57,157 bases of DNA, taken from a virus (taxonomy: Duplodnaviria > Caudoviricetes). Where the stretch lies: IMG/VR virus record IMGVR_UViG_3300025133_000125, positions 1 through 57,157 of that record. The stretch is one strand, 5' to 3'. Positions 12,015-20,319 of this stretch are shown one piece after another. Numbering within the stretch: position 1 is the stretch's first letter; each line of letters opens with the position of its first letter. The notes below the pieces were generated by a model, which worked only from the letters and a program-made list of their open reading frames with translations, did no database searches and was not told the origin of the DNA. Position numbers and translations under genes: made by a program.

Positions 12015-12869
12015 TTAGTTTGGAAAAGCTTGAATTTTTTTCATATATTTTTTAGCATTTTTCTTAGCATACTCTTCTGCTTGCTTTTCAAACGGATTAT
12101 CCCAATAAAAATCTTTACCTTTATCAACTTGTTTTTGTCCCGCTATAGTATATGCTGTTTCATAACCTTCAGAACCTAATTTTTTTCTCATCATCGCATG
12201 ATCACATTCATGTAAAATAGATTCTACAAAATCTTCTATAGAATCCTGTCGTGGATCTATCGATATTGTATCAGAGACCCACTCATAATCTGCTTTATTA
12301 TTTGATTGATCAATTTTTATTTTAGATCTCAATCCATGCATTTTAACTATTTCTTTTGCTATGTCTATCATATCGCTTCTATTCATTTTAAAACCCTCTG
12401 TAACAAATGTTTCTTTGTAATCTTTAATCTTGACAGGAATATTAAATCCTAATGCAAGTCCCATAATCATTCTAGAATTTCCAGCCATCAGATACAAGTC
12501 ATTATTTTTATCACGAATCATAAGCGGAGGTGGCAACTTGCTACGATTAATAAAACCATCTAGTAATCTTTTCCAGTCTCTTCCGTAATGCTTCATTAGT
12601 TTAATACACGCAGATAACCTTAATCCTTTGTTGCTGTAACCTAATATTTCTCCAATATCAGAATTTTTTATGTTAGCTAATTTATCAGGATTCAATAATT
12701 CAATATTAGCACCCTTGATAAAAGTTGCCATATCATCTTCATTAGAAAATAATTTTGGAATTGTTTTTGAAGTATAATCGTTATTAAAATATTCTGCATA
12801 TTCTGATTTTATTTCTTCAGAAGAATATTCTCTATAGTATTTGTACGGTTTTAAGCTACCATCCACCAT
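12015..12869 (-). CDS. Two-domain protein: ParB/Srx-like N-terminus + HExxH zincin-like metallopeptidase
   Basis: LPPPLMIRD...YLMAGNSR in the first domain; linker FVTEG; ESILHECDH...NPFEKQA in the second. Confidence 0.6.
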   Translation of the reverse strand: MVDGSLKPYKYYREYSSEEIKSEYAEYFNNDYTSKTIPKLFSNEDDMATFIKGANIELLNPDKLANIKNSDIGEILGYSNKGLRLSACIKLMKHYGRDWKRLLDGFINRSKLPPPLMIRDKNNDLYLMAGNSRMIMGLALGFNIPVKIKDYKETFVTEGFKMNRSDMIDIAKEIVKMHGLRSKIKIDQSNNKADYEWVSDTISIDPRQDSIEDFVESILHECDHAMMRKKLGSEGYETAYTIAGQKQVDKGKDFYWDNPFEKQAEEYAKKNAKKYMKKIQAFPN

Positions 12870-13144
12870 GCTGCCCCTATTTCGACTAGTAAGTCAGCAC
12901 CTGTATTGTACGCCCATTTCTTTTTGGTCCCGTACGTTTCCTCAGTACCTTCAACATACACTTCGAAGATTTCCCAAGCAACACCAATTATTGCAACCCA
13001 TAAGACAGCCCATAAATCAGAGCACCCTAACCACTGGGCGATTTTAGCAATAAACAGACCTGCTGCTATATGATAAGACGTCCAGTGATCAAGTTGTCCA
13101 GTTGAAAGCTGCCAATTAACAAATCCTTGAATCGGATTGTTCAT
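12851..13144 (-). CDS. Small integral membrane protein (VanZ/DUF2238-like motif)
   Basis: DHWTSYHIAAG...GVAWEIFE...NTGADLL; hydrophobic segments. Confidence 0.55.
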   Translation of the reverse strand: MNNPIQGFVNWQLSTGQLDHWTSYHIAAGLFIAKIAQWLGCSDLWAVLWVAIIGVAWEIFEVYVEGTEETYGTKKKWAYNTGADLLVEIGAAWWMVA

Positions 13145-13338
13145 TATTTGCTCCCAAATACCTTAGAAAAGAAACCTTTCTTCTTTTTGCCTTTGCCTTT
13201 AGAAATCTTCTTTCCTTTTTTCTTTTTCTTCTTCTTAATTTCTTCCATGCCTGCCATGTTCATATCAGCTGCATTAACTGTTGGTACAGCAGCAAATAAT
13301 ATTACAGCAGAAAGAAGCAATTTGATTATGTTTTTCAT
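13144..13338 (-). CDS. Exported lysine-rich peptide
   Basis: Signal peptide ending VNA, then KKKKKKKGKKISKGKGKKKKGFFSKVFGSK; GGAGG SD. Confidence 0.7.
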   Translation of the reverse strand: MKNIIKLLLSAVILFAAVPTVNAADMNMAGMEEIKKKKKKKGKKISKGKGKKKKGFFSKVFGSK

Positions 13339-13553
13339 AGGACTTCCTCCATTTTCTTATTTATAGCACCAATTATGCTATTAAAATCTTTATATGCTTT
13401 TTTTATTACGCCAGGCTTCTTGCGCTTGATACCACCTAATAATCTTTTAAAATTTGTAACCATATTACTTCCATATAACTGTAGTAATACATAAGCGCGT
13501 TCATCATCATCCATTTCACGAAGACGCTTGATTAGTACTTCCGTCTTAGACAT
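13335..13553 (-). CDS. Hypothetical protein
   Basis: Translationally coupled to both neighbours. Confidence 0.7.
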   Translation of the reverse strand: MSKTEVLIKRLREMDDDERAYVLLQLYGSNMVTNFKRLLGGIKRKKPGVIKKAYKDFNSIIGAINKKMEEVL

Positions 13554-14167
13554 TATCTATCTTTGTAATAGTCTTCGAAATCTTTCATTGCAGACCGCAT
13601 ATCAAATTTTTGAGTTTGTGTATTGATATTCTTTTTAATTGCGTAAAGAAAAGCAACTCTTAATCCAGGTGCATTAAAATTCGACATCATTTGGTTTATC
13701 TTATCAACAGAATTTGAAACACCCTCAATAGCATTTTTCAATGGCTTCTTAAGTTTAACAGCTGTTTTCATATCTTCATCTGCTACTGACCCTTCTTCTT
13801 TGATGAGCGCTTTTCTGATAACTTCTCTTAACTGTGATTTGAATTTACTTTCCTTCATTTTATTATCCTCTGTCTGATTTGTCCATCGATATCTTTCCAT
13901 ATCACTAACAACTTCGTCGGGAGATACACCTAAATCGTCAGCTATTGATTTAACAATATCATATCCCTTAGCACCAGATTTTTTAGCCATCTTGATCATT
14001 TTTTGCAGTTGAGCCTTATTGACTTCATTTACGGATTCATTCGCTTTTTGCATAAGCTTTGCAATTTTTACTAATGTCTCTTTGTCTTTTTTAGAAATCA
14101 TATCAAGCTGTCTATCTTTTGCAATTGCTTTTAGTGCTTTTTCATAAGCTGCTGTTGACTCTATCAT
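13553..14167 (-). CDS. Putative head-packaged multi-module protein
   Basis: ESVNE linker; internal SD-preceded ATG at 13858 (MKESKFKSQLREVIRKALIKEE). Confidence 0.6.
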   Translation of the reverse strand: MIESTAAYEKALKAIAKDRQLDMISKKDKETLVKIAKLMQKANESVNEVNKAQLQKMIKMAKKSGAKGYDIVKSIADDLGVSPDEVVSDMERYRWTNQTEDNKMKESKFKSQLREVIRKALIKEEGSVADEDMKTAVKLKKPLKNAIEGVSNSVDKINQMMSNFNAPGLRVAFLYAIKKNINTQTQKFDMRSAMKDFEDYYKDR

Positions 14168-14168
14168 T

Positions 14169-14777
14169 TTATCTCACCTTCTTTAATAATTTTTCTACTG
14201 CCATGAGTAACTTTTTTGATTGTTTAGGATTATCAAATGCATCATTTGCTTCTTCAGAATAAACTGCGTCTATTAAATAATCTACATCTTCTATTGCGTG
14301 CTCAAGATGATTTATAAGAGGAGAGGCAATTTCCTTTACTGATTCAGAAGCGCCATCTGGATAAAATCTATCTAATTGATCCCACCATTTTTGAAACTTT
14401 GAATATTCAGCTTTATAGCCACCTTTCTGAAGTGCGTACTTCATATTAACTATTGCATCATGTACTTCATCGTATGCTTGATCAATATTTAAATTTTGCT
14501 TTGGTGCTTCATTTACAGATTCGTCTATATGAGGATTATTTTGGTGTCCTTTTGACCAACTACTCATTAAACCTACAAATGGAATAACATGTTTTTTAAA
14601 ATTCTTTAAAATAATTCTTTCATCCGTACTACCGGTTGTGCCTACCTTAGTAGTACTTTTGGCTAAATTCATAGTTTCTCTTGCAAAAGCTTCATATGTT
14701 TTATACCACTTCGTATATAAATCCCAATATTTTTTCTTATCACCTTCAGTTATCAATAGATCTGTTAATTTTATCAT
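14169..14777 (-). CDS. Putative head-packaged multi-module protein
   Basis: MIKLTDLLITE leader; DESVNEA and SESVKEI linkers. Confidence 0.65.
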   Translation of the reverse strand: MIKLTDLLITEGDKKKYWDLYTKWYKTYEAFARETMNLAKSTTKVGTTGSTDERIILKNFKKHVIPFVGLMSSWSKGHQNNPHIDESVNEAPKQNLNIDQAYDEVHDAIVNMKYALQKGGYKAEYSKFQKWWDQLDRFYPDGASESVKEIASPLINHLEHAIEDVDYLIDAVYSEEANDAFDNPKQSKKLLMAVEKLLKKVR

Positions 14778-14779
14778 TA

Positions 14780-15148
14780 TTATTTCCAGGCCTTTACATA
14801 ATCTTTCATAAGACCATCTAATGCTTTTTTAACTTTCTTTTCCCAAGCAGTCAATTGTTTATATCTCTTTTCATATAGATTATCATCTCCACCTTCAAAA
14901 CCATGATACTCACCTGAATCACCATCAAATGAGCCGACTCGTAGATAATTCATATCTTTTGAAAATTGTTCAAAATGACCTTTTACATCCTTTATAGGAT
15001 CATGTAAATCAATATACTCATTGATTTGTTCTCCGTTTTTCTCTTGATGTTTTTTTGCTATATCTTCTAATGTAGGAAGTGGATCACCAAATTGTCTATT
15101 TTCAAATCCTGGAGAACTTTCTTTTAATAAGTCTTTTAATTTAATCAT
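14780..15148 (-). CDS. Putative head-packaged protein
   Basis: MIKLKDLLKE leader; QINE linker. Confidence 0.65.
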   Translation of the reverse strand: MIKLKDLLKESSPGFENRQFGDPLPTLEDIAKKHQEKNGEQINEYIDLHDPIKDVKGHFEQFSKDMNYLRVGSFDGDSGEYHGFEGGDDNLYEKRYKQLTAWEKKVKKALDGLMKDYVKAWK

Positions 15149-15837
15149 CTGTAGTGCCTCTCAATCCAGTTATAAATTTCTTTTGCCTCTTTGTCAGATA
15201 ATGCTCTGAATACTTCGTCTAAAACCTTTTTCTCAGAGCCTAGCATATCAATTAGATCATCCATCAAACCCAATCTTTTATTAACACCTTCACTTATATT
15301 TTCATCTGCACCAAAACCAGATTTAATTTTTTGCACCATTTGAATTAATTTTTGTGGCTCAATATCTAATGCATCTATTATACCTGCCAAAACATGAATT
15401 TTTCTTTTTCTACTTAATCCTGTATCATCTAGTGCATCGACAAATTTTGCCATAAATCTTTTAACATTACCAGGCAATGCAACATCTGCTTCATTTACTG
15501 ATTCATCTAAGTCTGACTTTTTAAAATCTTTTAAGTTTTTTACAACCTTTCTCATGTCACCATACTTGCCAACAATAAAATCATTACTTGAAACGCCTAA
15601 ATCAATTTCACCATTTTTGTGAACATAAAATGGAAGTACATCTTTACCGTTTGTTTGTGCATTAGATTCAACAGTATAAAAACAACCATAAATAGCATTT
15701 GTAAAGCCACGTTTCATTTCCTGATGTTTAAGAACTTTGATTCCTGCTTTTCTTAATGCATCATCTAAAAATTTCTTAATGGCTAGCTTAGCCTGTGAAG
15801 GTTCTTCGGGCTTTGGTGCTTCTTTTAATTTAGACAT
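15145..15837 (-). CDS. Putative head-packaged multi-module protein
   Basis: MSKLKE leader; DESVNEA and NISEG linkers; first module resembles that of 17618..18229. Confidence 0.6.
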   Translation of the reverse strand: MSKLKEAPKPEEPSQAKLAIKKFLDDALRKAGIKVLKHQEMKRGFTNAIYGCFYTVESNAQTNGKDVLPFYVHKNGEIDLGVSSNDFIVGKYGDMRKVVKNLKDFKKSDLDESVNEADVALPGNVKRFMAKFVDALDDTGLSRKRKIHVLAGIIDALDIEPQKLIQMVQKIKSGFGADENISEGVNKRLGLMDDLIDMLGSEKKVLDEVFRALSDKEAKEIYNWIERHYR

Positions 15838-15840
15838 TTA

Positions 15841-16470
15841 TTAACTCCTAAACAATGTATCATATTCTTTACGATCATATTTAACACCAGCAAATTTTGC
15901 TGCCTCCCATAGTGTCATATAATGAGAGTCCGTTGAGATATGGAATTTTGGCTTAAACTCAGCTATGTGTATATCCATATCTGACACTTCCCATGCCTTT
16001 TTAATAGTCATGGCATCTTTCCTTGTCATAGTCTGACCCCAAATATTTGTCATGCTCCCGTCAGTTTTACCATATTTATAAATTATAATTTCACATTGTG
16101 GTTGGAAAGACATATACATTTTTTTAATTTTGAATTTTCCCTTTTTAGCAGCTGCATTAAAAATTGGTTTTGCAAATTTCATTTGATCAGCACTAAATTC
16201 GTCTGCTTCATTAAGCCTTTGTACTTCTTCTTTGGTTATACCTTTTATAACGCCCCTAAGCTTATCAAGCTTTGATTCCTTAGCATCATCTGTATAGTTT
16301 TTTTCAATGTAATTAAAAAAATCTTTTTTCTTATCACCCTTTAAATCAGCAGGAGATTTTACATCAAATTTCTTTAATGCAGAGTTAAAAAAATTCTTGT
16401 ACTCCTCTTTACTACCTTCTGCAACATTAGTGACAATGTGTTTTATGATCGCTTCACTATAATAAGACAT
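15841..16470 (-). CDS. Putative head-packaged/prohead core-like protein
   Basis: NVAEG and RLNEA linkers; helical EEYKNFFNSALKKFDVKSPADL module; late motif upstream. Confidence 0.55.
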   Translation of the reverse strand: MSYYSEAIIKHIVTNVAEGSKEEYKNFFNSALKKFDVKSPADLKGDKKKDFFNYIEKNYTDDAKESKLDKLRGVIKGITKEEVQRLNEADEFSADQMKFAKPIFNAAAKKGKFKIKKMYMSFQPQCEIIIYKYGKTDGSMTNIWGQTMTRKDAMTIKKAWEVSDMDIHIAEFKPKFHISTDSHYMTLWEAAKFAGVKYDRKEYDTLFRS

Positions 16471-16490
16471 GCTACTATCTCCATTTTCTT

Positions 16491-16498
16491 ATAAATAT
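16491..16498 (-). promoter_or_regulatory. Putative late promoter motif ATATTTAT
   Basis: Intergenic, 21 nt upstream of ATG 16470. Confidence 0.55.
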
Positions 16499-16519
16499 CG
16501 TGTTAATGTAAATATATGT

Positions 16520-16846
16520 TTAATCATCAGCGTGTTCTAGCAATTTAACATCATCCTCAGCATTATTAAACCAAAAATCAATTACCTTTGCGAATGAACC
16601 AACAAACCCACCTAACATTAGTAGTAAAATCTCTTTCCAGCCACCAACAACATCAACACCGTTACTCATAAAGTAAATCATTAATGCAAGAATTGTTGCA
16701 AACAATGAAACAACAACTATGCTGATTAACCATTTTTTAGCCTGTCTGAATTTTATAATACCGATCAATTCTTGATTAATAGAATGTTTTTGATCTTGTG
16801 TGTATCTTTCATCAGATAGAACAGCTGTCTTTTTTAAATCTGCCAT
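16520..16846 (-). CDS. Holin-like two-TM membrane protein
   Basis: Two TM helices; LLLMLGGFVGSFAKVIDFWF. Confidence 0.5.
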   Translation of the reverse strand: MADLKKTAVLSDERYTQDQKHSINQELIGIIKFRQAKKWLISIVVVSLFATILALMIYFMSNGVDVVGGWKEILLLMLGGFVGSFAKVIDFWFNNAEDDVKLLEHADD

Positions 16847-16855
16847 AATAGCCTC

Positions 16856-17029
16856 CTATTTGTCTTTTGAAACCGAAGCTTTTCTATACTCAGTAACAAG
16901 TTTTTTTATTTCGCCAATTGCTTTGCGTGCTCTTCCACCAGCAGACTTATTTCCTTTTACAGAATGTGCCTGATGATTCTCTTCAAATGCGTCCCAAAGT
17001 TCTTTTAATTGATTGTAAATATTATTCAT
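16856..17029 (-). CDS. Histone H1-like protein, Hc1 family (57 aa; not in track)
   Basis: MNNIYNQLKELWDAFEENHQAHSVKGNKSAGGRARKAIGEIKKLVTEYRKASVSKDK; GNKxAxxRAR...RKxS is the Hc1 signature. Confidence 0.85.
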   Translation of the reverse strand: MNNIYNQLKELWDAFEENHQAHSVKGNKSAGGRARKAIGEIKKLVTEYRKASVSKDK

Positions 17030-17040
17030 CTTTTAATTTC

Positions 17041-17322
17041 CTATTTTATATAATCGTCATCATGATCTAAATAACCAAACCATCCTTCATATGCAACTTC
17101 TGCATTTTGTTTGGCATCTTTCCACCTTCTATGTGTATTGTACAAAACATCGTGGCTTGATGGTGCGCCTCCATGTATTTTTTTATATTGCTCTGCTGCT
17201 TTTTCCATCATTTGAACTATTTTTTTACATTGTGCCCTAAGCTTAACAACATCACGCTTAGCTGCAGCATATTCTTTAGGATCATAAGCTTCTGATATTT
17301 CTAAAAATTTACTTAGCTTCAT
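17041..17322 (-). CDS. Putative head-packaged protein
   Basis: MKLSKFLEISEA leader. Confidence 0.55.
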   Translation of the reverse strand: MKLSKFLEISEAYDPKEYAAAKRDVVKLRAQCKKIVQMMEKAAEQYKKIHGGAPSSHDVLYNTHRRWKDAKQNAEVAYEGWFGYLDHDDDYIK

Positions 17323-17618
17323 TTTAATTCTCTTTCAGCATAAGGTATTGCACTTGGTTGCCAAATATACTCATTCTTTTTTTCTGACCAAGCAATCATC
17401 TCTCCTGTCATGCCGTTAATTATATCAAAGTCCGGTACTTTTCCAGATAATATTATTTTCATAGCCTTTGCTATAGCAGCCTTAAGTTCTTTTTTAGTTT
17501 TCGCATGAATATTACCTTGTTTATCAACATCTTCAATTACAGATCCAAAAGCTTTTGCTGGATGATGATCAGAAATATGTCCCTTTTGATTTTTTAATAA
17601 ATCTGTTAGTTTGATCAT
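17319..17618 (-). CDS. Putative head-packaged protein
   Basis: MIKLTDLLK leader; SVIED. Confidence 0.6.
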   Translation of the reverse strand: MIKLTDLLKNQKGHISDHHPAKAFGSVIEDVDKQGNIHAKTKKELKAAIAKAMKIILSGKVPDFDIINGMTGEMIAWSEKKNEYIWQPSAIPYAERELK

Positions 17619-18229
17619 TATGTAAACCTCACTTTTTCTATGTCCCTGTCAGGGAATTTTCTTTTTATATAATCAACAGCCCACTTAGCAGCTAACTTTA
17701 ACTTATGCGTATTCGAGTCTACAACGTATCTTGCACCTATTCCATCTACTACAATATAGTAATCATGCTTTTTAATTCCATACTTCTTTCCCATAGAATA
17801 TTTATCTGCTTCATTACTACGATATATAGAAACTTTTCTATACTTTGATAATCTTGCTGTTCCAACATACACATCGCCAACATCCATTCTTTCATTTATA
17901 GGTCTTAACAAATGAAGATCTTTGTATTTAGATTCAACCCATTTATTATTTCGTTTTATTGATTTCATCCAGTCTATTATTTTGTTTGACTTATCAATTC
18001 TACCAATATTTTTATCTTGATAAAATACATCGCCATATTTGCTAACACTCATTGGAAGTATAGCATTTTTAGTTTTAAACTCCCCGGACCATATTTCATT
18101 ATACCCTTTTTTTGTAGCCTTAAAACTTTTTACTTGAAAGCCTGCCCGCTTTAGCATGCTTACTAAAGCACCATTTATTTTTAAATCCTGATTAGGGCTT
18201 AATTCTTTTGCTTCGTGAGTATTACTCAT
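17618..18229 (-). CDS. Putative head-packaged multi-module protein
   Basis: Likely start 18229 (ATGA overlap with the upstream stop); PINER linker; first module paralogous to that of 15145..15837. Confidence 0.55.
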   Translation of the reverse strand: MSNTHEAKELSPNQDLKINGALVSMLKRAGFQVKSFKATKKGYNEIWSGEFKTKNAILPMSVSKYGDVFYQDKNIGRIDKSNKIIDWMKSIKRNNKWVESKYKDLHLLRPINERMDVGDVYVGTARLSKYRKVSIYRSNEADKYSMGKKYGIKKHDYYIVVDGIGARYVVDSNTHKLKLAAKWAVDYIKRKFPDRDIEKVRFT

Positions 18230-18573
18230 TTTAATTTTATTCCAAACTTTTTTAGTTTCGCGTGTAATCCTAACATCCAAGAATAAACTGCCTTCTCAAT
18301 ATCTGCTTTGCCTTCATACTTTACTAATACTCTAAAGATGTCATTATTAATGTATTTTAAAGCTCTGGCCAAATCATAATCAGGAGCTTCTTCATTTACA
18401 GATTCTTTTTCTACTTTTTTAATTAGTTTTGCGCCGTCTTTTAATCCACTAGCAACTTTTTCAGCAGCTTCCTTTTCATTCTTTGCGCTAACAGTTTTGG
18501 ACATTAGGCCAGCAGAGCCAACATCAAAGTAAACTGTATACTTATCTTCTAATAAAGATTTTAATTTGATCAT
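18226..18573 (-). CDS. Putative head-packaged two-module protein
   Basis: MIKLKSLLE leader; KESVNEE linker. Confidence 0.65.
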   Translation of the reverse strand: MIKLKSLLEDKYTVYFDVGSAGLMSKTVSAKNEKEAAEKVASGLKDGAKLIKKVEKESVNEEAPDYDLARALKYINNDIFRVLVKYEGKADIEKAVYSWMLGLHAKLKKFGIKLK

Positions 18574-18995
18574 TTTGTCACCTTCTTAACTTTTTCAATT
18601 GAACGACCTGCGAAGTATGCTGCGTATACAGTCATTAATAGTGTTTGATAAACTGGCACATATGCAGCACCAATTGTAAAATCTTCACCTGCAATTTGCA
18701 AGTTCCCATCAAATACACTTAATACAGTAAAGACAGCAGTTAAAAATATCAATGTTAATGGTCTAATATTTTTTGATAACCAACTTCCGTGTTTCATATC
18801 AGCTTCCCATCTTGCTGATACTTGTGCTTGAGCTGCTTGTTCTGCTTTGGCTAAAATTTCAGTAATTCTTTCTTTTGCAGCGGCTTTCTCTTCACCTGAA
18901 GTATGTAAATTATCTATAATCCCACCTACATCTTTTAATGTATCACCACCTAATAGTGATCCAGCTGCCTTTCCTAGTGTTGCTAATAAACTCAT
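18570..18995 (-). CDS. Holin, GTA-type 'holin of 3TMs' family
   Basis: RWEADMKHGSWLSKNIRPL, TM segments, AYFAGRSIEK C-terminus. Confidence 0.8.
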   Translation of the reverse strand: MSLLATLGKAAGSLLGGDTLKDVGGIIDNLHTSGEEKAAAKERITEILAKAEQAAQAQVSARWEADMKHGSWLSKNIRPLTLIFLTAVFTVLSVFDGNLQIAGEDFTIGAAYVPVYQTLLMTVYAAYFAGRSIEKVKKVTK

Positions 18996-19006
18996 AACTA
19001 TTCTCC

Positions 19007-19342
19007 TTAGTATTCAAAACCCCAGGGTTCAGAATTATTTCCGCCCTTTATTGCATACCATATATCTTTAACTCTAAAATACCAAAATTTATTTGTCTCT
19101 AAAACATAAAATTCACCTTTAGGTGTTTTAAAACTTTTATTTGGTCCAAACTTAACTGTCATAGGTGCACCGTCATCCCACATCTTATCAGTCGTTTGAC
19201 CTTTTACCATCGTCCCATCACCAACAGCTTTATAAATTCTAGATCCTGGGTAATCTCCTTTTAGAGACGCCAAACCCTCAGGCATTCCTTCATTTAAAAT
19301 ACCTTCACATAGCATATCAATATTATCTTTTAACTTAATCAT
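19007..19342 (-). CDS. Putative head-packaged protein
   Basis: MIKLKDNI...GILNEG leader. Confidence 0.55.
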   Translation of the reverse strand: MIKLKDNIDMLCEGILNEGMPEGLASLKGDYPGSRIYKAVGDGTMVKGQTTDKMWDDGAPMTVKFGPNKSFKTPKGEFYVLETNKFWYFRVKDIWYAIKGGNNSEPWGFEY

Positions 19343-19713
19343 TAATAATCCTCACCAGCTATTGCTTCTTCAATTGCATCTTTAATATCTCCAGGCTCTA
19401 CATCAATCATACCATCCATATCGCCTTTCCATGTATCTATTTTATCACCGTTTATAAATAGCGCAATTGAAGGAAAATTTCTCAATCTTAATTTTTTACA
19501 ATATTTTTTTGTGTCTTCTGACATAGCTTTAATGATAATCGCATTTTCATGTCCCTTCACACCCTCAACGTATTTCATGCCATCACTTTCAGCCCACTTA
19601 GATGTAAATACAACTACAACTACTTTATCATTTATTCTTTCTTTAAAATTCTTATCAGTAACTTGTCCAAGCAAGGTAGATAAGAAAAATATTAATCCAA
19701 TTAAATATCTCAT
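19342..19713 (-). CDS. Exported thioredoxin-fold protein lacking CxxC
   Basis: Signal peptide; VTDKNFKE, VVVVFTSKWAES (WCxxC replaced), cis-Pro motif RNFPSIALFING. Confidence 0.75.
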   Translation of the reverse strand: MRYLIGLIFFLSTLLGQVTDKNFKERINDKVVVVVFTSKWAESDGMKYVEGVKGHENAIIIKAMSEDTKKYCKKLRLRNFPSIALFINGDKIDTWKGDMDGMIDVEPGDIKDAIEEAIAGEDY

Positions 19714-19722
19714 ATCTTACTC

Positions 19723-20319
19723 CTATTTCTTATCCTTTTTTCTTCGTTCAAGATCTTTAACATCTTTTTGTAATTCTTTCATTAAATCTTTTAACTCATC
19801 TAATGCACCAAATACATCATCTACATCATCTTGTAAACCGCCAACTTGAGACTTATATTGCTCAAAAGATCTTGGCCAATTATGGCCCCCTGGCTTTGAT
19901 GGATATTCCGCCTCATATAAACTTTCTAAACTCGGTAATTCTTTTGCTTCTTCAATCTCACTTTGTAATGCATACCACATACCAATCAATGAAGCAAGGC
20001 CTGTCCCAGCTGCTATCATAGTTTGAATTGATAATGTAAACTTAGTATCTAATACTTTATCTTCACTTATTTCGATTGGTTCTTTTTTCTTAGGTTCTAT
20101 TTTTTCAGCAATCACTTCTTGATGTTCTTCATGACCATTACCATTTTTTAATATAGTATCTGTTATATCCTCTAAAGAACAAAAACCTTTGTCAACAAGT
20201 ATTTCTCCAAGAGATCTTTTATCACCTTTAACTTGTGCCTGTAATGCTTGATTTAATTGTCTTCTTGTGATAATATCTTCATCACATAACAATTTACCTA
20301 TTTTAATATCTCCGTTCAT
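19723..20319 (-). CDS. MshEN-like (c-di-GMP receptor) domain + single TM + C-terminal coiled coil
   Basis: Two tandem 24-aa motifs, KIGKLLCDEDIITRRQLNQALQAQ and SLGEILVDKGFCSLEDITDTILKN, match RLGxxLLxxGLIxxxxLxxxLxxQ; TM LSIQTMIAAGTGLASLIGMWYAL. Confidence 0.75.
   Translation of the reverse strand: MNGDIKIGKLLCDEDIITRRQLNQALQAQVKGDKRSLGEILVDKGFCSLEDITDTILKNGNGHEEHQEVIAEKIEPKKKEPIEISEDKVLDTKFTLSIQTMIAAGTGLASLIGMWYALQSEIEEAKELPSLESLYEAEYPSKPGGHNWPRSFEQYKSQVGGLQDDVDDVFGALDELKDLMKELQKDVKDLERRKKDKK

Follow-up and report, generated by a model that had tools for sequence, protein, structure and literature searches.

Introduction

Capsid-delivered proteins of phage T4 act ahead of any phage gene expression, and the tag that takes them into the capsid has already been used to load foreign proteins there; to our knowledge, only a handful of such capsid-delivered proteins, from few cultured phages, are known. 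Here we describe a gene array of an uncultured marine T4-like phage, in a viral stretch of 57,157 bases (the window, which is the entire IMG/VR virus record IMGVR_UViG_3300025133_000125, estimated to be 31% complete), whose small proteins share an N-terminal leader and are divided into modules by E-S-[V/I]-N-E linkers. We think it probable that this array consists of capsid-targeting tags and protease-cut polyproteins, in which the logic of the T4 internal proteins is used as a module library.

The T4 protease gp21 is described as cutting after the Glu of L/I-x-E, and the T4 capsid targeting sequence as 10 residues long, residues 8 and 10 governing its processing and Asp at position 10 blocking it (PMC9026906). 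Among the proteins so delivered, IPI* is reported to block a host restriction endonuclease (PMC3012670) and Alt to modify the host RNA polymerase (PMC9026906). The array resembles IPI, IPII, IPIII and Alt, as these sources present them, in that a tag of about 10 residues ending in aliphatic-x-Glu at positions 8-10 is common to unrelated proteins, in that the lineage has an S77 protease of the gp21 type, and in that close relatives differ in their set of cargoes (PMC9026906, PMC3012670). Unlike the T4 proteins, many cargoes here are chained by a near-invariant pentapeptide, the leaders fall into three classes, the leader genes lie mostly inside the head gene cluster, and the system is known from sequence alone. 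The array proteins have no PHROG or Pfam match of the IPI, IPII, IPIII or Alt kind; the likeness that we draw is one of way of working, and we do not claim descent.

The T4 core proteins gp22, gp67 and gp68 offer a second comparison. As with these, the genes adjoin the protease gene, there are multiple internal aliphatic-x-Glu sites and some carriers are conserved head-module proteins, but the pieces here are exchangeable modules, which also occur as stand-alone genes or in other orders. We know of no such exchangeable modules in the T4 core proteins. In the account of Iyer, Burroughs, Anand, de Souza and Aravind (2017), the polyvalent proteins of phages and conjugative elements are proposed to travel in the phage head, to be delivered together with the DNA and to be set free by proteolysis; they have in common with the array many unrelated domains per polypeptide and genes located with late or structural genes (PMC5512222). 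As described there, they are large, enzyme-rich and carry an embedded zincin (MPTase) peptidase, whereas the modules here are small and unannotated and a trans-acting head protease is proposed; no Pfam family of an embedded peptidase was found in the modular proteins of the window, nor in two polyproteins of relatives (L008 10654-12357 and L009 74-1357). A further parallel is with the ejection or inner-body proteins of phiKZ, 201phi2-1 and SPN3US, dozens of which are reported as substrates of a diverged gp21 homologue that cleaves behind Glu, at several sites per propeptide (PMC9026906, PMC10052503). These three belong to the jumbo phages, and their protease is of another subfamily. It favours a small residue at the second position ahead of the Glu, and we are aware of no report of a common N-terminal tag or a uniform linker in their ejection or inner-body proteins. 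In the literature searched, subscription journals and supplements lying outside that search, we found no description of a near-invariant pentapeptide that links small orphan modules into chains, of free reassortment of the modules at this linker or of a system on such a scale.

An N-terminal leader common to unrelated proteins

A preliminary description of this DNA had listed seven N-termini in the array, MIKLTDLLITE, MIKLKDLLKE, MIKLTDLLK, MIKLKSLLE, MIKLKDNI, MKLSKFLEISE and MSKLKE, and all seven were recovered exactly. MIKL begins 5 of the 79 open reading frames (ORFs) of the window, where 0.32 are expected from position-wise composition, and the leader and linker signal is confined to 14.0-19.3 kb. 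MKLSKFLEISE and MSKLKE fall outside the strict leader pattern used below, but their orthologues and module contexts favour reading them as degenerate leaders. Scoring of the window N-termini with a position-specific matrix also put the five MIKL genes on top, yet its scores were distorted by harsh pseudocounts and it was set aside.

For wider comparison, we assembled 1246 ORFs from the window and 88 related stretches of viral contigs (L005-L009, L012, L013 and L014, which are the rest of G001, and L015-L093). The strict leader, M[IL]KLxx-aliphatic-aliphatic, begins 80 of these ORFs, with the consensus M-I-K-L-K-x-[I/L]-[L/M/I]-x-E. Glu occupies position 10 in 64 of the 80 leaders, as against 62 of the 1166 other ORFs; the pattern itself restricts position 8 to L, M, I, V or F in all 80. 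The mature parts that follow belong to at least 12 unrelated clusters. Leader codons vary synonymously (ATA/ATT/ATC, TTA/CTA, GAT/GAC), and no conservation extends into the DNA upstream; thus the leader is conserved at the level of protein.

Three classes of leader can be told apart: a form of 10-11 residues and two longer ones. The long form, of about 40 residues, runs MIKLKxxxxE, 4-7 residues, then RKFG[D/E]xLPTL, and 26 of the 67 unique leader proteins have it; its columns M1, I2, K3, L4, K5, E10 and R, F, G, L, P, T, L stay unchanged across 18 proteins which diverge afterwards. The third form is marked by GHISDHHPAKAF. A profile of the first 35 residues of the long leader matches 716 protein clusters (at 50% identity, E <= 0.001), starting at residues 1-7 in 140 of the best 150; this leader alone thus marks a large set of proteins, almost all without a known domain (none in 36 of the 38 scanned). 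The earlier proposal that this common N-terminus works in the manner of a T4-type capsid targeting sequence gains comparative support from this motif chemistry and from gene position in relatives, given below.

E-S-V-N-E linkers and their chemistry

The linkers noted earlier, ESVNE at 14024-14038, 14508-14522, 15490-15504 and 18391-18405 and ESVKE at 14331-14345, are all present. ES[VI][NK]E occurs five times in the window, always within the array (shuffle mean 0.09; none of 2000 shuffles reached five), and ES[VIL][NDKE]E occurs 160 times in the window and related stretches together, against 9.7 +/- 3.1 in shuffles (maximum 19). Up to six linkers are found in one protein (L038 4361-6139, 592 residues), encoded beside the protease gene.

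The composition of the linkers bears on a reading in which nothing is cut: these would be ordinary multi-domain proteins, the linker and N-terminus having spread by recombination at linker DNA, with the leader serving some other purpose, such as the start of translation in an AT-rich genome or attachment to membranes. That a single 15-mer, GAATCCGTAAATGAA, makes up 32 of the 92 linker DNA contexts is in keeping with such spread, but the Ser of the linkers is coded by both TCN and AGY, ES[VI]N is followed by Glu 141 times and never by Asp, and an aliphatic residue stands third in the linker (V 116, I 25, L 3, M 2). The leader codons are AT-rich, as a role in initiation would have it, the leader is missing from most polyproteins, and the motifs are absent from relatives that have a protease of this family; yet leader genes are restricted to the interval between protease and capsid genes, an identical module can begin right after a leader Glu or a linker Glu, a few proteins have internal copies of the leader at apparent points of gene fusion (P0048; P0160 compared with P0174), and the motif recurs at the expected self-processing sites of the protease. 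We regard the absence of cutting as quite unlikely.

The last of these points comes from the protease's own sequence, which has Q-I-N-E|S near residue 20 (in the alignment rows inspected) and N-E-S-[I/V]-[N/D]-x directly after the catalytic domain, in several of the 11 rows inspected out of 32; by their position, these would correspond to sites of gp21 self-processing. Capsid proteins have Q-L-I-D-E|[S/A/T] 16 residues ahead of the conserved core in 23 of 23 inspected, which may be a maturation site, judged from position only because the alignment to T4 gp23* stops short. The aliphatic residue two before the Glu is predominantly Val in linkers, unlike the Leu/Ile of T4, and L, M or I in leaders. 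With Glu not replaced by Asp, and an aliphatic residue two positions earlier, the chemistry of linker and leader appears to fit the S77 substrate rule. The suggestion that the linkers behave like gp21-type (S77) sites is supported by motif chemistry, by the same motif in protease and capsid proteins, and by the position of module boundaries at Glu.

Reassortment of modules at the linkers

Homologues of the three-module, 202-residue protein encoded at 14169-14777 (modules A, B and C) typically span a single module, or 17-69% of the query. Module A is preceded by Glu in all 29 determinable contexts (of 32 rows), 5 being leaders and 24 linkers, and V, I or L stands two residues before that Glu in 28 of the 29. 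Similarly, a module beginning VLTRGG comes after a leader ending in SIHE in L005 and after ESVNE in L008. More generally, BLAST break points between proteins of different architecture are enriched at linkers: 82 of 454 starts and 100 of 543 ends of high-scoring segment pairs (HSPs) are located within -6 to +2 of a linker end, against 30 of 454 and 34 of 543 at random positions (18% observed as against 6-7%, or about threefold), and HSPs end most often at the linker Glu itself.

Such exchange is seen between phages that are otherwise close. The contig stretch L095 has an SbcC-like protein 94.9%, a RusA 94% and a holin 91% identical to those of the window, and there the three modules of the 202-residue protein are in three different genes. 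P0002, 97% identical to the 202-residue protein, has one extra module inserted between two ESVNE linkers, and P0029 is the 230-residue protein of the window (15145-15837) with, again, one extra module between two ESVNE.

In an AlphaFold2 (AF2) model of this 230-residue protein, residues 13-111 (module D) have a predicted local distance difference test score (pLDDT) of 72-93, falling below 50 from residue 112, the first of ESVNE. Predicted domain boundaries thus match the linkers, as had been anticipated, where the fold is confident. The 202-residue protein is predicted to have three helical blocks, with both linkers in the low-confidence stretches between them. As to function, the injection and the anti-defence or host-takeover role proposed earlier gained no support, and no module gave a Pfam or PHROG family of known function or a clear fold assignment: an ESM Atlas search returned just one unnamed cluster (score 0.75), the best hit in a fold search with module D was at noise level (Z 7.5, Mediator Med17C), and the single viral match of module D is an unnamed 111-residue protein (E 3e-8). 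A count of module families by cutting at strict linkers was rejected, single linkage having chained 162 of 295 segments into one family with weaker sites left uncut; the rough estimate it leaves, 50 architectures in 123 unique proteins, is not relied on.

The S77 protease and head-gene loci of relatives

A search with the 202-residue protein found five viral contigs, which match its first module only. In L005 and L007 that module is in the protein encoded directly upstream of the prohead protease gene, and about 540 bases downstream of the protease gene, beyond two small ORFs, is a gene for a protein starting MIKLRDLL and containing ESVNE and ESINE linkers. The protease of these relatives is a Peptidase_S77 of the T4 gp21 family (PF03420, E 1e-34 and 1e-28, above cut-off), which matches gp21 homologues in 2580 phage records, T4-like coliphages among them, and is 61% identical to the protease of Microcystis phage Mel-JY01. 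Its lineage was found on more than 583 viral contigs, from which 80 head-gene loci were sampled; an S77 gene is present at these loci, in the relatives G002 and G003 and in Mel-JY01. In G002, one 18-kb contig holds a module-A polyprotein, an orthologue of the array gene at 17041-17322 and the S77 gene.

Across the 80 loci, leader genes make up 69 of the 332 ORFs between protease and capsid genes but only 2 of 460 elsewhere (2 of 234 from portal to protease, none of the 172 ahead of the portal and none of the 54 past the capsid gene). Where at least 2 kb downstream of the protease is available (35 loci), a leader gene is present in 19, a linker in 32 and either in 33.

This location is also where scaffold and core genes lie, and so is compatible with a different fate for the proteins: they would be loaded and cut as disposable filler of the prohead core or scaffold (like T4 gp22, gp67 and gp68), the fragments leaving before DNA packaging or staying as charge-balancing peptides, and would not be injected effectors. 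T4 core proteins are indeed described as cut to several fragments which mostly leave the head (PMC9026906); a scaffold protein of a relative itself has ESVDE (L049 14479-15579), and module A is found inserted into the conserved gene upstream of the protease (P0013, L083). Although the modules lack a recognisable effector domain, as filler might, module D is a compact, confidently predicted alpha/beta domain and the window array lies outside any head module. In addition, the module repertoire turns over between near-identical phages and there are hundreds of different leader proteins, a pattern of accessory cargo rather than of essential scaffold. We therefore judge it unlikely that the proteins are filler.

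Two further observations concern head genes. A ribosomal protein S21 gene lies between protease and scaffold genes in Mel-JY01 (L001 22183-22410, annotated RpsU), and L020 16410-16625 is similar, by eye only. The scaffold protein of Flavobacterium phage immuto (L096 9886-11127) has an internally duplicated module of about 60 residues, beginning GFEQWLDSVSAQMDKFGKNNPTIQAIEKAV, each copy coming after x-x-E|G, which suggests module insertion at protease-type sites also in this cultured relative.

A proposed route into the head and the host

Targeting, cleavage, retention in the head and ejection are steps that we infer for the array proteins, by analogy with T4, as follows. The short N-terminal leader would bring each protein into the core of the assembling prohead; there, the S77 (T4 gp21-type) protease would cut after the leader Glu and after the Glu of each E-S-[V/I]-N-E (aliphatic-x-Glu), and so would free small independent modules of about 45-115 residues, which would remain with the DNA and probably be ejected into the host. 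Because the modules would work only once cut apart, their order and the gene that hosts them would be irrelevant, and such order-neutral modules would explain their free shuffling between genes and phages at the linkers.

Several results weigh against this route. No S77 gene was found in the 57-kb window or in its two closest fragments, G009 and G010, so the link of the array to the protease rests on relatives; the gp21-like protease expected elsewhere in the genome is thus missing from this record, which is 31% complete. A baseplate homologue, which would tie the lineage of the window to the head modules, was likewise not found in five long head-module contigs, but this carries no weight either way because all of them are fragments. 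The window array sits between tail and replication genes and is broken up by a holin and membrane proteins. Just 6 of 111 linker-bearing proteins have the strict leader, so that the leader is not the universal start that had been supposed and most polyproteins would need some other route of head entry; position 10 is not Glu in 16 of the 80 leaders. Copying at the DNA level adds to the uniformity of the motif, given the share of linker contexts held by one 15-mer, and our counts are not of independent events, because they come from metagenome fragments of which several are near-identical (e.g. L022-L026). The predicted fold of the 202-residue protein is poor (mean pLDDT 48). Finally, G011 (142 kb, with S77) has no leaders and no ESVNE, the S77-bearing head region of phage immuto likewise has neither, and Mel-JY01 is without ESVNE, its three leader-like starts all belonging to one paralogue family. 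As these distant S77-bearing phages lack the linkers, we take the system to be a clade-specific addition; array modules had no match in a collection of 50,697 phage records (cultured phages).

Head-module polyproteins of relatives mostly begin with a DUF3008-type module in place of the MIKL leader. Such a module (PF11450, E 3e-10) opens L071 11737-12834 and similar genes in L044, L049, L062 and L063, and some of these polyproteins initiate at a GTG upstream of the first ATG. DUF3008 might be an alternative head anchor.

A broader suggestion, which we offer tentatively and hold to be possible but somewhat doubtful, is that of a cassette system at the protein level: the 15-base linker repeat and the leader would be universal joints by which small injected effector modules are swapped, stacked or inserted at any place in a large marine T4-like clade, and the hundreds of orphan modules would be a mostly unexplored library for host takeover or anti-defence, delivered before phage gene expression. 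Insertion would then be possible even in essential head-core proteins, because the head protease would restore free modules.

If the proposed route holds, the clade appears to mark its cargo with a readable tag and cut site, so that cargo could be listed from sequence. E-S-V/I-N-E would be a concrete candidate for a substrate code of an S77 protease outside enterobacterial phages, order-neutral polyproteins would offer an evolutionary explanation for domain shuffling, and tag and linker could be tools to load foreign proteins into capsids.

Genes of the array

The modular and accompanying genes are, from the upstream end:

19007-19342, minus strand: 111-residue protein, start MIKLKDNI confirmed; diverged leader MIKLKDNIDMLCE at 19304-19342, with L-C-E at residues 11-13
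18570-18995, minus strand: holin (phrog_3427, E 7e-28)
18226-18573, minus strand: 115-residue protein; leader MIKLKSLLE (18547-18573), a module, ESVNE (18391-18405) and a second module, EAPDYDL...GIKLK
17618-18229, minus strand: 203-residue protein without MIKL leader; N-terminal module paralogous, by alignment, to module D of 15145-15837
17319-17618, minus strand: 99-residue protein starting MIKLTDLLK; 29-residue leader MIKLTDLLKNQKGHISDHHPAKAFGSVIE (17532-17618), then a single module
17041-17322, minus strand: 93-residue protein; degenerate leader MKLSKFLEISE (17290-17322)
15841-16470, minus strand: 209-residue protein without leader (phrog_28651); its first module, of about 65 residues, recurs within polyproteins
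15145-15837, minus strand: 230-residue protein; mini-leader MSKLKE (15820-15837), module D (alpha/beta, residues about 13-111), ESVNE (15490-15504) and helical module E
14780-15148, minus strand: 122-residue protein; long leader MIKLKDLLKE...RQFGDPLPTL (15068-15148), then EQINE (15017-15031)
14169-14777, minus strand: 202-residue, three-module protein; leader MIKLTDLLITE (14745-14777), A, ESVNE (14508-14522), B, ESVKE (14331-14345), C
13553-14167, minus strand: 204-residue protein; M-I-E, a 45-residue module, ESVNE (14024-14038) and a 156-residue remainder
13335-13553, minus strand: 72-residue, single-module protein without leader
12015-12869, minus strand: 284-residue HECDH (HExxH) protein; membership of the system uncertain

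The span 12015-19342 had been presented as one array. Leader and linker genes are indeed present in it, but mixed with genes of other types: besides the holin these are two membrane proteins, a signal-peptide/poly-Lys protein, an Hc1 histone-like protein and the HExxH protein. Cutting at strict sites would yield about 12-13 mature pieces from eight genes, fewer than the 15-20 peptides predicted earlier.

Most of these genes have counterparts in which a module is found in another setting. In L095 1119-1544 as in P0008, the second module of 18226-18573 comes after another first module, and the module of 17319-17618 is the final unit, after ESINE, of a 312-residue polyprotein in L095; the GHISDHHPAKAF segment of the leader of the same gene is found again in P0004 and P0021. 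The N-terminal module of 17618-18229 lies within ESVNE-delimited polyproteins in P0018 and L095 1541-2479; this ORF had been listed as 17618-18280, from a TTG start, and the L095 orthologue indicates that the ATG at 18229 is most likely the true start. The first module of 15841-16470 is upstream of module D in P0041 and P0043 and forms a separate 90-residue gene in L095, while the start of module D, APKPEE, comes after MSKLKE in the window and after ESINE in P0034. The first module of 13553-14167 recurs within P0007, after KSE and before an ESTNE linker, and the module of 13335-13553 is the C-terminal unit of a leader-bearing, 169-residue protein (L008 13687-14196). Degenerate leaders, too, have counterparts: the L095 orthologue of 19007-19342 (80% identical) begins MIKLRDNIGMLAE, and a homologue of 17041-17322, L009 2109-2369, has a canonical MIKLKNILTEE, the L095 orthologue of that gene being 40% identical.

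The HExxH protein, encoded by the last gene of the array in the window as in L095, raises the question of whether it, and not the prohead protease, cuts the linkers, in the manner of the MPTase-mediated domain release that Iyer et al. (2017) proposed for polyvalent proteins (PMC5512222). Its HExxH region has a weak similarity to PF18818, MPTase-PolyVal (E 0.015), at 15.8 bits where the cut-off is 27.5. The protein is 75% identical in L094 and L095 and has a 36%-identical copy in G005; homologues were found in two of five related linker-bearing records, and none in the other three (G001, G002 and G004), all of which are fragments. Since aliphatic-x-Glu is the known specificity of S77, and is also present in the S77 protease and the capsid protein, we consider cutting by the HExxH protein very improbable.

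Two small basic proteins are encoded among the modular genes. One, of 57 residues and isoelectric point 9.8 (16856-17029, minus strand), lies mid-array without a leader and matches histone H1-like Hc1 (PF07432, E 1.3e-15); it could be a candidate DNA-condensing protein. The other, of 64 residues (13144-13338, minus strand), has a signal peptide and a poly-Lys tail with net charge +16, and is kept in L008 12357-12590 and L095 5817-6008.

Neighbouring genes and other observations

All long ORFs of the window, array genes included, are on the minus strand. The window encodes T4-type baseplate wedge proteins and two giant structural proteins, together with a primase, RusA, an SbcCD-like nuclease, DNA ligase, peptide deformylase and Hsp20. 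The closest cultured match of its gp6-like baseplate protein is in Mel-JY01 (48% identity), followed by the Flavobacterium immuto phages (39%). The T4-type late promoter TATAAATA gave no signal in the window, with 14 occurrences against 12.8 expected.

Upstream of the array are a thioredoxin-like protein with a hydrophobic N-terminus (19342-19713, minus strand; PF00085, E 6e-6) and a 198-residue protein (19723-20319, minus strand). The N-terminus of the latter matches the cyclic-di-GMP-binding domain of MshE type (NF053729, E 3.7e-12, 45.8 bits, cut-off 38) and its C-terminal half matches phrog_6664; it may be a phage protein that binds cyclic-di-GMP.

Just upstream of the terminase gene, relatives encode large enzymes, with kinase-like AAA_33/zeta-toxin, cytidylyltransferase-like, poly(A) polymerase/CCA-adding head and HD domains. 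L049 363-4244 starts MNKLTKWLVESILTE and L009 2366-4774 starts MNKLTEWLTKPFLDE, both ending in aliphatic-x-Glu, and L009 4786-9492 starts differently, with MRVKNVDVMK. These may be packaged RNA-repair or RNA-modifying enzymes.

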